A DNA stretch of 25,161 nucleotides, taken from the IMG/VR virus record IMGVR_UViG_2851938318_000004; one strand, written 5' to 3'. Shown piece by piece: positions 2,097 through 25,161 of the stretch. Below the pieces are notes generated by a model, which made no database searches, was not told the origin of the DNA, and saw only the letters and a list, made by a program, of their open reading frames with translations. The DNA is from a virus. Taxonomy: Duplodnaviria; Heunggongvirae; Uroviricota; Caudoviricetes. Numbering within the stretch: position 1 is the first letter of the stretch; each line of letters begins with the position of its first letter. Position numbers and translations under genes: made by a program.

Positions 2097-2987
2097 TCAG
2101 GCTGCCAGATCATCGTTTCCGATGGAAGCATAATAAGCTTTTTCTGCTTCTGCCGGAGGAGTATGGCCCAGCCTTCCCAGCAATCGTCGATTGTTATACC
2201 AGTCCACCCACGTGAGTGTGGCCAGTTCCACTTCTGCACGGTTTTTCCAGCTCTTACGGTGTATTACCTCCGCTTTGTAAAGACCATTGATGCTCTCAGC
2301 CATCGCGTTGTCATACGAGTCGCCTGTACTCCCTGTTGATGCCAGTAATCCGGCTTCTTTTAGTCGCTCCGTATAGGCCAGTGACACATACTGAGAGCCT
2401 TTATCGCTGTGATGGATGGTGCCAGACGGACGACGGGCCCACAACGCCTGCTCCAGCGCATCCAGCACGAATGTCGTTTCCATAGACGATGAGACCCGCC
2501 ACCCCACGATGTATCCGGCAAACACATCAATGATAAACGCCACATAGACGAAGCCCTGCCATGTGCTGACGTAAGTAAAATCAGCCACCCACAGCTGGTC
2601 AGGTCGTTCTGCCACGAACTGACGGTTTACGCGGTCGCCTGCGGCAACGGCTTTCCGGCTGATGGTCGTACGGACCTTTTTACCCCGGAGAACACCGGCA
2701 AGTCCCATAACCGCCATGAGACGTGCCACTGTACATCTGGCCACCCTGATTCCTTCCCGTAACAACTGACGCCAGACTTTACGCACACCGTACACCTGAT
2801 GATTTTCATCGTATACGCGCTGTATCTCTCTCTTCAGCCAGTCGTCGTGCTGCGCACGGGCACTGCGTTTATCCGGATGATGTCGCTGTTGCTGACAATG
2901 GTAATACGTTGACGGGGCAATATGCAGTTCGCTGCATACCGGTCCGACCCCGTACTGCTCACGCAGCTTATCCAGCAGTGGCATCAT
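2097..2987 (-). CDS. IS3-family transposase OrfB (DDE integrase-like catalytic domain), IS629-like
   Basis: 296 aa ORF; 5' end overlaps orfA in the -1 frame. Confidence 0.9.
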
Positions 2988-3310
2988 TTTTTCCAGAGGC
3001 GGTCGAACTCCGCCTTCGCAAAATAAGCGGAAGCCTGGCGAAGGATATCGTTACTGCGGCGCAGTTCACGATTTTCACGTTCCAGCTCTTTCAGACGCTG
3101 ACGTTCAGCGCTGGTGAGCCCACCATCACCGCCCCCGGTATCCCGCTCATGCTGGCGAACCCAGACACGCAGAGTCTCCGGCGTACAGCCAATCTTTGGG
3201 GCAATGGAACAAATTGCCGCCCACTGTGAGTCATATTCATCCTGACTTTCCAGAACCATACGAATCGCCCGCTGACGGACTTCGGGGGAAAAACGAGTAT
3301 TTTTAGTCAT
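2984..3310 (-). CDS. IS3-family transposase OrfA (HTH DNA-binding), IS629-like
   Basis: 108 aa, [26 protein letters not shown]... with C-terminal leucine-zipper-like [21 protein letters not shown]. Confidence 0.9.
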
Positions 3311-5424: not shown

Positions 5425-5482
5425 AAAAAGGGCGGCAGAGCAGTCACGGAGTAAAACTGATACCGCCAAACGTCACCAGAAA
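5425..5482 (-). ncRNA. dicF: DicF-like small regulatory RNA (ftsZ-targeting sRNA family), about 58 nt including terminator U-tract
   Basis: Minus strand reads TTTCTGGTGACGTTTGGCGGTATCAGTTTTACTCCGTGACTGCTCTGCCGCCCTTTTT, with a GGCGG...CCGCC hairpin plus T-run. Lies about 170 nt upstream of dicB on the same strand, as in K-12. Confidence 0.7.
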
Positions 5483-11479: not shown

Positions 11480-12349
11480 ATGACCACTATTACCAAAGAA
11501 CGTATTGAATTGTTCATTAAAAATCCGCTTGAAAACGGGCTTACCCGTGGTGAACAAATGGAACTGGCACGGATTGCGCTGGCATCGCTGGAAGCAGAGC
11601 CGGTGGCAAAGATTATAGCTCATTACCCATTAGGGGTTGACGTAGGCAAACAAAAATTTGTACAGGCCATTAGAGAGCTTCCTGACTTTGGCGGATATCT
11701 ATTTGCCGCCCCTCCAGCGCCGATAGTGCCGGAAGAAATGTATTGGCAGGATGCGCCAGTTGAAGGCAGCAGCAAAGCGGCTGCATACGCTACAGGCTGG
11801 AACGATTGCCGCGAAGCCATGTTTCAGTCCGGAAACTTTCGGGAAAATAAAGATTCGTCAACCAATAATTTTCGGAAAATCCCGGAAGCGTCAACCAGCT
11901 CTCCGGTAACTCCGGCTCTTCTGCCTGGTGGTTTCACCATTGAGGAGGCGAAGGAATTACATGAAGACCTGGCACGCAGCCACATAAGCAAGGCCTTAAG
12001 TGGCGAAAAGATGAAAAAGAAAGATCGCGATGCTGATTTGCGCTGGATTCATGGCGTTATAGTTCAGGCAGCGTGGTTTGTAAAAGCATCACTGGAGCAG
12101 AATGCACTATCGGGCAACTATCCGGTAACTCCGGATAGTTGGATAAGCTGTAGTGAGCGAATGCCGGATACCAAAACAGCCGTTCTTGTTGCCAGGGATT
12201 TTGGCAGGAAAGGTGACTGGCGAATGAAATGGGCGACTTACATCCCGGGGCATCCTGACGCTAATGATGGGTGGATAATACCTGGTGCGTCGTGGATACC
12301 ATCACACTGGATGCCTCTACCAGAACCGCCGCAGGAGGTGCGCCAATGA
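11480..12349 (+). CDS. DUF551-domain phage protein, 289 aa
   Basis: C-terminal WISCSERMPD...W...IP..W.PLPEPP pattern typical of DUF551; AAGGAG SD. Confidence 0.6.
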   Translation: MTTITKERIELFIKNPLENGLTRGEQMELARIALASLEAEPVAKIIAHYPLGVDVGKQKFVQAIRELPDFGGYLFAAPPAPIVPEEMYWQDAPVEGSSKAAAYATGWNDCREAMFQSGNFRENKDSSTNNFRKIPEASTSSPVTPALLPGGFTIEEAKELHEDLARSHISKALSGEKMKKKDRDADLRWIHGVIVQAAWFVKASLEQNALSGNYPVTPDSWISCSERMPDTKTAVLVARDFGRKGDWRMKWATYIPGHPDANDGWIIPGASWIPSHWMPLPEPPQEVRQ

Positions 12350-12423
12350 ACTGGCCTGAAGCATTTGCAATTACAGGCGTTGCTATGGCTATCGCTTTTT
12401 TAGTATATGTTATTTGTCGGTGA
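12346..12423 (+). CDS. Small hydrophobic peptide, 25 aa (MNWPEAFAITGVAMAIAFLVYVICR)
   Basis: AGGAGG SD; ATGA overlap with the upstream stop. Below the ORF-track size cutoff. Confidence 0.3.
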   Translation: MNWPEAFAITGVAMAIAFLVYVICR

Positions 12424-12464
12424 GGGTAAAAACGTTCGCCGGGATTAACACCAAAGGAGGGAAT

Positions 12465-12569
12465 ATGTCGGATGATATATCACTGGCAATGGAAGGTGCG
12501 CTGGCTGTTGTTGCTGTTGTGGGCGTTTACTGCCTGGTTGTGTTTTTGATGGATCGACTAGGGAACTGA
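12465..12569 (+). CDS. Small hydrophobic peptide, 34 aa (MSDDISLAMEGALAVVAVVGVYCLVVFLMDRLGN)
   Basis: AAAGGAGGG SD 5 nt upstream; single predicted TM helix. Below the ORF-track size cutoff. Confidence 0.35.
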   Translation: MSDDISLAMEGALAVVAVVGVYCLVVFLMDRLGN

Positions 12570-12814
12570 ATTCATTACGATATGGGAATTCCCATATCGG
12601 GTAAAAACGGTTTGCGGTAAAGCGAGAGTTAAGTAGAATTGCTGCGGGTGCTTGAGGCTGTCTGCCTCGGGCATGCCACCGTAAGGCAGACAGAGAAAAG
12701 CCCCAGTTAACATTACGCGTCCTGCAAGACGCTTAACATTAATCTGAGGCCCAATCTATGCTTCACAAACGTAGGTTAGCCTCTTACGTGCCGAAAGGCA
12801 AGGAGAAGCAGGCT

Positions 12815-12970
12815 ATGAAGCAGCAAAAGGCGATGTTAATCGCCCTGATCGTCATCTGTTTAACCGTCATAGTGACGGCACTGGTAACGAGGAAAGACCT
12901 CTGCGAGGTACGAGTCCGAACCGGCCAGACGGAGGTCGCTGTCTTCACAGCTTACGAACCTGAGGAGTAA
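12815..12970 (+). CDS. hokD: Hok/Gef-family type I toxin (51 aa), HokD/RelF-like
   Basis: MKQQKAMLIALIVICLTVIVTALVTRKDLCEVRVRTGQTEVAVFTAYEPEE; in-frame upstream extension resembles a mok-like leader; inverted repeat CTGTCTGCC ... GGCAGACAG in the 5' leader. Confidence 0.85.
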   Translation: MKQQKAMLIALIVICLTVIVTALVTRKDLCEVRVRTGQTEVAVFTAYEPEE

Positions 12971-13039
12971 GAGACCCGGCGGGGGAGAAATCCCTCGCCA
13001 CCTCTGATGAATCAGGCATCCTCAACGCACCCGCACTTA

Positions 13040-13065
13040 ACCCGCTTCGGCGGGTTTTGTTTTTT
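13040..13065 (+). terminator. Intrinsic terminator after hok
   Basis: CCCGC-TTCG-GCGGG followed by TTTTGTTTTTT. Confidence 0.6.
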
Positions 13066-13137
13066 CCTGGCATTCTGGTTTACAATTCGCACGCCAGCCT
13101 GAACAACTGGCACCTGCTGCGCCAGCAGAGACAACCG

Positions 13138-24838: not shown

Positions 24839-25161
24839 TTTTTCCAGAGGCGGTCGAACTCCGCCTTCGCAAAATAAGCGGAAGCCTGGCGAAGGATATC
24901 GTTACTGCGGCGCAGTTCACGATTTTCACGTTCCAGCTCTTTCAGACGCTGACGTTCAGCGCTGGTGAGCCCACCATCACCGCCCCCGGTATCCCGCTCA
25001 TGCTGGCGAACCCAGACACGCAGAGTCTCCGGCGTACAGCCAATCTTTGGGGCAATGGAACAAATTGCCGCCCACTGTGAGTCATATTCATCCTGACTTT
25101 CCAGAACCATACGAATCGCCCGCTGACGGACTTCGGGGGAAAAACGAGTATTTTTAGTCAT
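24835..25161 (-). CDS. IS3-family transposase OrfA (IS629-like), copy 2; start codon is the last three bases of the window
   Basis: Protein identical to the copy 1 OrfA. Confidence 0.9.

Follow-up and report, generated by a model that had tools for sequence, protein, structure and literature searches.

What do two very short hydrophobic reading frames encode when each follows a near-consensus Shine-Dalgarno (SD) sequence and both lie just upstream of a hok toxin gene? We addressed this in IMG/VR record IMGVR_UViG_2851938318_000004, an Escherichia coli lambdoid prophage of 25,161 nucleotides, which we call the window and which was analysed at its full length. A first reading of the letters alone had singled out the two open reading frames (ORFs), here ORF1 and ORF2, as consecutive membrane peptides of 25 and 34 aa that might be overlooked toxins, modulators or lysis regulators. 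Judged by sequence, each is very probably a real gene for a small membrane peptide, and for ORF2 published ribosome profiling adds to the case. We consider it likely that they are two separate genes of E. coli and Shigella lambdoid prophages, each specifying a predicted single-pass inner-membrane peptide, with ORF1 coupled to the gene before it and ORF2 initiating by itself.

Two hydrophobic frames with strong translation signals

Coordinates and ribosome-binding sites of both frames were confirmed.

12333 to 12338, plus strand: AGGAGG, SD sequence of ORF1, 7 nt 5′ of its ATG and inside the last codons of the upstream gene (..QEV..)
12346 (ATG) to 12423 (TGA), plus strand: ORF1, 25 aa, MNWPEAFAITGVAMAIAFLVYVICR, a single hydrophobic transmembrane-like helix
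12454 to 12460, plus strand: AAGGAGG, SD sequence of ORF2, read from the sequence; AGGAGG is also kept before the GTG of the diverged sister, type B
12465 (ATG) to 12569 (TGA), plus strand: ORF2 (type A), 34 aa, MSDDISLAMEGALAVVAVVGVYCLVVFLMDRLGN, one transmembrane-like helix

Each peptide is essentially one predicted transmembrane (TM) helix, as had been proposed: the best 17-residue Kyte-Doolittle window scores 2.48 in ORF1 and 2.94 in ORF2, compared with 3.22 in Hok. The pairing of an SD core with a TM-like stretch exceeds chance in the window. A six-frame census counted 281 ATG-initiated ORFs of 20–60 aa, with an SD core in 9 and a TM-like stretch in 8; four had both, against about 0.26 expected under independence, and these were ORF1, ORF2, Hok and an ORF at 22231–22344. 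For both peptides, membrane insertion and topology are what we infer from these sequences. ORF1 would lie N-out, C-in by the positive-inside rule, because R25, its only basic residue, is near the C-terminal end and E5 near the N-terminal end. ORF2 is laid out as three acidic residues, a helix of about 18 residues and a DRLGN tail.

ORF2 is a translated gene with a diverged sister

ORF2 is already known. It is identical to the RefSeq hypothetical protein WP_001278454.1 (34 aa), annotated by the NCBI Prokaryotic Genome Annotation Pipeline (PGAP), and it has been shown to be translated in published ribosome profiling. The expectation that standard annotation would miss both peptides is thus mistaken for ORF2; it holds for ORF1, which PGAP leaves unannotated in all three RefSeq records inspected. 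In strain Sakai the ORF2 copy is ECs_5710 (YP_009502606.1) of prophage Sp6, with one V16I substitution relative to the window, and the Sp6 order equals that of the window: a DUF551 gene, an ORF1 copy, ORF2 and mok/hok.

Huecker et al. 2017 (PMC5597208) listed this Sakai copy as XECs145, among 465 intergenic ORFs with a convincing ribosome-profiling (RIBOseq) signal, and modelled it as a 54-aa ORF with a non-canonical upstream start and a 20-residue N-terminal extension. In lysogeny broth (LB) they recorded 79.1 reads per kilobase per million (RPKM) for RNA and 346.1 for ribosomes, a ribosome coverage value (RCV) of 4.35 and a coverage of 0.99; in brain heart infusion (BHI) the values were 121.3, 150.1 and an RCV of 1.14, and under cold and osmotic stress translation was lost (PMC5597208). 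In the BHI RCV distributions of S1 Fig (PMC5597208), values above 4 belong to the extreme upper tail. The same authors predicted one TM helix and an inner-membrane location (PMC5597208). ORF2 is transcribed and densely covered by ribosomes in growing lysogens without harm to them, and it would initiate on its own strong SD sequence, independently of ORF1.

Homology is narrow. A protein-database search, queried with a 51-aa upstream-extended frame, located the 34-aa form on some 997 contigs, which all belong to E. coli. An ORF2 profile had no relatives when run against one genome per species (185,579 species), and all-against-all HMMER over 1.84 billion representative proteins returned close E. 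coli relatives only. No remote homologue was found that could hint at a function.

A diverged sister was found at loci reached via ORF1 or via the non-coding hok promoter. This type B, (M)LVLKCALAIAAVMAIYCLAVVLMDRLSD, has 29 aa and a GTG start 5 nt after AGGAGG; it shares 62% nucleotide identity with type A over the last 90 nt and ends at the same point relative to the hok promoter. Minimum changes across types A and B fall 16/8/26 on the three codon positions (chi-square p = 0.008), and within type B the ratio of nonsynonymous to synonymous polymorphism (pN/pS) is 0.34 in frame versus 0.63 and 0.74 in the other frames. The amino-acid replacements are V/I/A/M/G exchanges within the helix, and the GTG that replaces ATG in three type-A copies is still a start codon. 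Together, the frame-specific codon pattern, the helix swaps and the kept starts bear the mark of moderate purifying selection on the protein. A promoter scan identified no ORF2-specific sigma-70 promoter for type A; in type B, TTGAAT-17-CATATT looks plausible by eye, but its −35 is not conserved in all contexts.

ORF1 and ORF2 are independent modules

The two frames are independent modules and not the pair that their adjacency had suggested: ORF1 is found without ORF2, and type-B ORF2 without ORF1. The elements that mark the junction in the window are these.

12424 to 12434, plus strand: direct repeat copy 1, GGGTAAAAACG, left edge of the ORF2 segment, from alignment
12578 to 12599, no strand assigned: perfect 22-nt palindrome CGATATGGGAATTCCCATATCG with a central EcoRI site, forming a 9-bp hairpin, with no T-run on either strand
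12599 to 12609, plus strand: direct repeat copy 2, GGGTAAAAACG, right edge of the ORF2 segment, from alignment
12611 to 12639, plus strand: inferred hok promoter TTTGCG-17-TAGAAT, read from the sequence and kept in all anchor hok loci

The repeat occurs in two exact copies, where 0.55 matches would be expected at up to one mismatch. Between the copies, the window and Sakai hold about 175 extra bases, made up of the ORF2 SD sequence, ORF2 and the palindrome. This segment of about 175 bp is absent from 933W-like phages, and in PA4, in our locus L103 and in many other loci ORF1 leads straight to ..GATAAAAACGGTTTGCGG.. and the hok promoter. In the window, an ORF2-hok cassette would have been joined behind ORF1 at the repeat junction. 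The palindrome, whose RNA hairpin with flanks is predicted at −19.7 kcal/mol (z = −5), also follows other genes 5′ of hok promoters, in the same or a variant form (L108, L329, L340), and is therefore an element of its own.

We sampled 78 loci anchored on the hok promoter only and classed the upstream neighbour by script and by reading.

Intact ORF2 5′ of the hok promoter: 33 of 78 loci (13 type A, 20 type B)
ORF1 directly adjacent: 27 of 78 loci (2 with a nonsense codon)
ORF2 remnants cut by recombination: 13 of 78 loci
Other sequence: 5 of 78 loci

The remnants consist of the last 6–8 codons (type B) or of the stop plus the palindrome (type A); breakpoints inside ORF2 were located at L327, L331, L353, L355, L340 and L342. 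ORF2 usually travels with hok, yet neither requires the other: ORF2 adjoins hok in 129 of the 144 copies with enough flank, and type B occurs also without hok. ORF2 and hok/sok move as one cassette, since ORF2 ends just before the hok −35.

Could this position, rather than the peptide, be what matters? ORF2 might act in cis, modulating the abutting hok promoter or yielding 5′-extended hok transcripts, with its amino-acid sequence of little importance. The stop just 5′ of the −35 in both types (in type B an 8-nt gap, by reading of the sequence), the frequent adjacency to hok and the stable hairpin between stop and promoter in type A would all suit such a role. The coding-type substitutions and the hydrophobic helix conserved across types that are 62% identical argue, however, that the peptide itself is selected; 933W/Sp5-like phages, moreover, have functional hok loci that lack ORF2 (hokW-sokW, PMC8621323), and type B is not confined to hok loci. 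We regard a purely cis-acting ORF2 as very unlikely.

What follows ORF1 is variable. Its 3′ cargo may be hok/sok, ORF2 plus hok/sok, ParE/ParD, RelE (PF06296) with a helix-turn-helix (HTH) antitoxin, KilA-N, ORF6N or unknown genes (variable-cargo loci L096, L092, L154, L159, L089, L101 and L323). The slot after ORF1, from window position 12424 onward, looks like a hotspot for toxin-antitoxin and accessory genes. In Qin of K-12 the slot carries relBE-hokD.

This setting permits a reading in which ORF1 and ORF2 are functional companions of the toxin-antitoxin cargo, modulating Hok insertion or activity, or in which ORF1 marks and gates a dedicated toxin-antitoxin or defence slot. Its basis is that in 60 of the 78 hok loci the promoter of hok is directly adjoined by one or other of the small helices, and that the slot after ORF1 holds hok/sok, ParDE, RelE-HTH or relBE-hokD. 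We give this companionship an outside chance.

ORF1 is a widespread candidate gene, most likely coupled to its upstream neighbour

ORF1 begins inside the end of a longer gene.

11480 to 12349, plus strand: Ea22/EaA-like gene, 289 aa, with a C-terminal DUF551 domain (ORF list; Pfam DUF551, 6.7e-19; PGAP)

The ORF1 ATG overlaps the TGA stop (12347–12349) of this gene as ATGA. Across homologous loci the upstream partners are mosaic Ea22/EaA-type genes with at least three unrelated 3′ modules (..PEPPQEV[RN]Q, ..GLISVEDVLR and ..KNIEQEVNR), all three of which keep GGAGG or GAGGA 6–9 nt before the ORF1 ATG, within their last codons. The pattern with which we collected the copies specified nucleotides with an N{45,51} spacer and imposed the ATGA overlap, leaving the stop, the SD sequence and the in-frame upstream stop free. 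That the SD sequence and the in-frame upstream stop are kept although absent from the pattern makes termination and re-initiation the likeliest route to ORF1. Translation of ORF1 is thus most likely coupled to the Ea22/DUF551-type gene, as we infer from sequence: ribosomes ending that gene would stop at the TGA of the ATGA and then re-initiate on ORF1, aided by the GGAGG inside its last codons. So coupled to an early gene, ORF1 would be expressed whenever that gene is.

The family is typically 27 aa long, with the consensus MTWPEAFTTVGIAMAVALVVYSICRWG. The window carries a minority nonsense allele, TGG to TGA at codon 26 (W26); 70 of the 81 loci with type-A ORF2 have TGG in place of this TGA and end two codons later (..ICRWG). 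Diverged homologues occur without ORF2, as MTWPDAFAIVGVAMSIALIVFAICRWG in Stx2a_WGPS2 and MTWPEAFANVGTVMAVVLVVYSICRWR in the 933W-like PA4. By tblastn, 99 phage records match over the full length, 933W, VT2-Sakai, Min27 and BP-4795 among them, and the pattern scan of IMG/VR yielded 192 copies (57 unique DNAs), 190 of them with the exact 27-aa end, a stop lying outside the search pattern. Among complete E. coli genomes, 1630 of 5426 carry ORF1, in 3102 places. Among species representatives the pattern was confined to Escherichia and Shigella; the remaining hits, on two very small contigs that are probably contaminants and one by chance out of frame, were set aside. A few GenBank submitters annotate ORF1, for example as AOM45384.1, 'bacteriophage protein'. 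Its clustering with 121-aa 'DUF551' proteins was rejected as an artefact of partial translation in the overlapping frame and does not reflect a fusion. ORF1 is, by these comparisons, a widespread candidate small gene of modest novelty.

Conservation of the frames in related prophages, a check proposed along with the original observation, came out in favour of coding: start, SD sequence, frame and length are kept, and changes are biased to third codon positions. In ORF1, changes in the unconstrained codons 8–23 (16 codons) fall 18/16/31 on the three positions (p = 0.047), with a pN/pS of 0.49 in frame versus 0.78 and 1.32 in the other frames, and amino-acid changes are mostly conservative hydrophobic swaps. 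Deletions of 2 and 4 codons occur in frame. In 39 unique contexts from loci not chosen via ORF1, 33 copies are intact (the 25- or 27-aa classes of our script); the rest are one in-frame 23-aa deletion variant, three W3 nonsense alleles, one frameshift and one read-through.

Several points weigh against the reading of ORF1 and ORF2 as two genuine genes. Constraint on both is moderate, and its statistics come from few sites (16–29 codons) in related sequences. About 10% of the unique ORF1 contexts are broken, by the three W3 nonsense alleles and the frameshift, and one common ORF1 allele, A17D, puts an Asp within the helix. The ATGA at the ORF1 start was imposed by the search. Since recombination has truncated ORF2 in 13 of the 78 hok loci, neither gene is indispensable. 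Profiling support was found for ORF2 and not for ORF1: direct evidence of ORF1 translation is absent from the Sakai study, whose 30-aa cut-off exceeds the length of ORF1, and neither peptide appears in the supplements of two further enterohaemorrhagic E. coli (EHEC) profiling papers. Paralogous prophages may also affect the Sakai ribosome reads.

Some of these points would also fit an ORF1 without function, a frame open by chance or as a recombination linker 3′ of Ea22-type genes, its translation a by-product of termination and re-initiation. The moderate constraint, the A17D allele, the W3 nonsense recurring in three backgrounds, the W26 nonsense in the window allele itself and a junction of mosaic character followed by many different cargos all lean that way. 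Against it speak the near-invariant 27-aa stop, indels that stay in frame, a third-position excess specific to the ORF1 frame, mostly conservative hydrophobic swaps and an SD sequence kept in three unrelated upstream coding contexts. A functionless ORF1 therefore seems to us rather unlikely.

Relative to ORF1, ORF2 is in the −1 frame, and ORF1 contains a U_UUU_UUA heptamer at 12394–12400, in the correct register and with the −1 frame open from there to the ORF2 ATG. The two could thus belong to a single 74-aa protein with two helices, whose parts a frameshift has separated or programmed −1 frameshifting unites, and rare database proteins of 70–74 aa do fuse both frames (P0001, P0007, P0008, P0009). 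Those fusions, however, arise from different 1-nt indels and occur on one or two contigs each, versus about 997 for the split form. The heptamer is present in window-type alleles only, the consensus reading GCG CTG GTG, and the one hairpin predicted begins some 20 nt past it, not at 5–9 nt; we rejected it as a programmed frameshift site on both counts. ORF2 also has its own SD sequence and start, and type B stands without ORF1 upstream. A single split protein is extremely improbable.

The same U-run (12394–12400) is predicted to pair with the ORF2 SD region (12452–12460), with a minimum free energy of −22 kcal/mol (z = −3.3). With such pairing, which is restricted to window-type alleles and lacks covariation, initiation at ORF2 would require ribosomes to unwind ORF1 first.

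Accessory peptides are favoured over toxins

By hydropathy, both ORF1 and ORF2 are small hydrophobic membrane peptides, as type I toxins are. Does this, together with their place beside hok/sok, make one or both of them type I-like membrane toxins, or lysis or holin regulators, acting alongside Hok? In size and hydrophobicity they recall Ibs, ShoB, TisB, DinQ and ZorO, and two weak promoter-like matches of the minus strand (12489–12462 and 12430–12402) could give antisense RNAs. The promoter scan would return 0.9 such matches by chance, however, and by eye both are absent from type-B ORF2 and from consensus-type ORF1 sequences. No conserved antisense RNA and no SD-occluding leader was found for either frame with Rfam, the promoter scan or the homologue sequences, and the Rfam scan of 12346–12645 returned no RNA family.

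Family searches agree. At E ≤ 1 neither peptide hit the HOK_GEF profile (PF01848), which the adjoining 51-aa ORF hits at 5.8e-23; the NCBIfam Hok models likewise matched that ORF only. Against Pfam, NCBIfam and PHROGs no family match was accepted for ORF1 or ORF2. A sub-threshold Pfam PTR2 match to ORF1 (18.2 bits against a cut-off of 27) and a PHROGs match to phrog_38566, a family of unknown function (E = 0.005), were taken as hydrophobic noise.

Translation speaks against a toxin as well. Both SD sequences are strong, and ORF2 ranks among the most ribosome-covered novel ORFs of healthy, growing Sakai cells; ORF2 is translated in growing cells, so the rule that a type I toxin's translation is kept off does not hold for it. 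The lysis genes lie about 8 kb downstream, and no link to lysis was found. Nothing, in sum, points to a toxin or a lysis regulator for either peptide, and we think such a role quite improbable. Because ORF2 is highly ribosome-dense in the lysogen without harm, tolerated accessory membrane modulators of the moron type appear the better description of the two peptides.

Genomic setting

All genes of the ORF1/ORF2 region lie on the plus strand. The 401 bases surrounding the two frames are 100% identical to chromosomes of O111, O121 and other Shiga toxin-producing E. coli (STEC); the same query matches 995 of 5426 complete E. coli genomes and is covered to at least 80% in 634. Replication-region genes and small nin-type genes precede the Ea22/EaA-like gene. 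Downstream stands the intact hok/mok/sok locus, whose inferred promoter was not called by the automatic scan.

12646 to 12820, plus strand: hok mRNA leader and sok region (Rfam RF01794, 117.5 bits, E 1.7e-26)
12758 to 12970, plus strand: mok reading frame (ORF list), which hok overlaps in frame
12815 to 12970, plus strand: hok, 51 aa (Pfam HOK_GEF, 5.8e-23; PGAP name HokD)
13039 to 13066, plus strand: intrinsic terminator 3′ of hok

Beyond hok, the PGAP order is a hypothetical protein, DUF968, RusA and the Q antiterminator.

The ORF at 22231–22344 (plus strand) from the census is a third small hydrophobic frame, of 37 aa (MKGIEVETPASLDLIRAAAFAIRIVAIAVLVWAIRWW), in the lysis region. GAGG stands 9 nt upstream of it, and its stop precedes the Rz ATG (22347) by 2 nt. 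Located in the interval of about 330 bp between the endolysin gene (end 22010) and Rz, the frame follows a terminator-like hairpin near 22100–22140; a Pfam search gave no match.

Elsewhere in the window, the ALIL frameshift pseudoknot gives two identical matches of 121.5 bits each, at 2913–3029 and 24764–24880, both on the minus strand. The ORF sets that accompany them, at 2097–3310 and 23948–25161, match each other. These are two copies of one insertion sequence: the first breaks into the left part of the prophage, and the second lies at the right end of the window. Further Rfam matches are the DicF antisense RNA (5430–5481, minus strand), three tRNA genes (17546–17792, plus strand) and the small RNA (sRNA) STnc100 (17872–18062, plus strand), accessory RNAs typical of Shiga toxin (Stx)-type lambdoid prophages.

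Implications

This is an ordinary small-gene finding that changes no concept. Its use lies in annotation: ORF1, a candidate gene of 27 codons, is carried by about 30% of complete E. coli genomes, frequently as multiple copies, and by the classic Stx phages 933W, Sp5 and BP-4795. Prophage annotation would gain from including ORF1 and correcting the start of ORF2, and small-protein work in STEC would gain two well-defined targets. The module layout also makes it clearer how toxin-antitoxin cassettes, hok/sok among them, are shuffled in lambdoid prophages: ORF1 goes with Ea22-type genes, to which it is most likely coupled, ORF2 is joined to the hok cassette, and behind ORF1 comes a slot of variable toxin-antitoxin content.

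Comparison with known systems

The closest counterpart is XECs145/ECs_5710 of Sakai, whose neighbours are those of window ORF2: a DUF551 gene and an ORF1 copy precede it, and mok/hok follows. The difference lies in the gene model, 54 aa in the profiling paper versus 34 aa from the SD-preceded ATG, as PGAP now annotates it.

Hok/Gef proteins (PF01848, including hokW-sokW of Sp5, PMC8621323) are likewise small, hydrophobic and single-helix, and are encoded at the same locus on the same strand. Unlike them, ORF1 and ORF2 have no sequence match to the family, measure 25–34 aa versus 51 and lack a periplasmic C-terminal domain. Nor was a mok-like coupling frame, a Sok-type antisense RNA or a fold-back leader found for them, and ORF2 is strongly translated in growing cells.

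Short type I toxins of similar size include Ibs (18–19 aa), ShoB (26), DinQ (27), TisB (29) and ZorO (29), each with a dedicated antisense sRNA and translation-blocking mRNA structures. ORF1 and ORF2 resemble them in length and hydrophobicity, whereas no conserved antisense sRNA or blocking structure was found here.

E. coli also has single-pass inner-membrane proteins of at most 50 aa, such as AcrZ, MgtS and YohP, which came to light in small-ORF and ribosome-profiling studies, often modulate larger membrane proteins and are routinely missed by gene callers. Size, one TM helix and a strong SD sequence are common ground; the prophage peptides differ in having no homology to these proteins, in being prophage-borne and in their restriction to Escherichia and Shigella.

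Among lambdoid genes, ORF1 shares the ATGA overlap typical of coupled small ORFs of the nin and ea regions, but it is unusually short and keeps one mosaic partner family (Ea22/EaA/DUF551) across three 3′ modules. ORF2 plus hok resembles a lambdoid moron, a cassette inserted at a short repeat, with ORF2 expressed in the lysogen.

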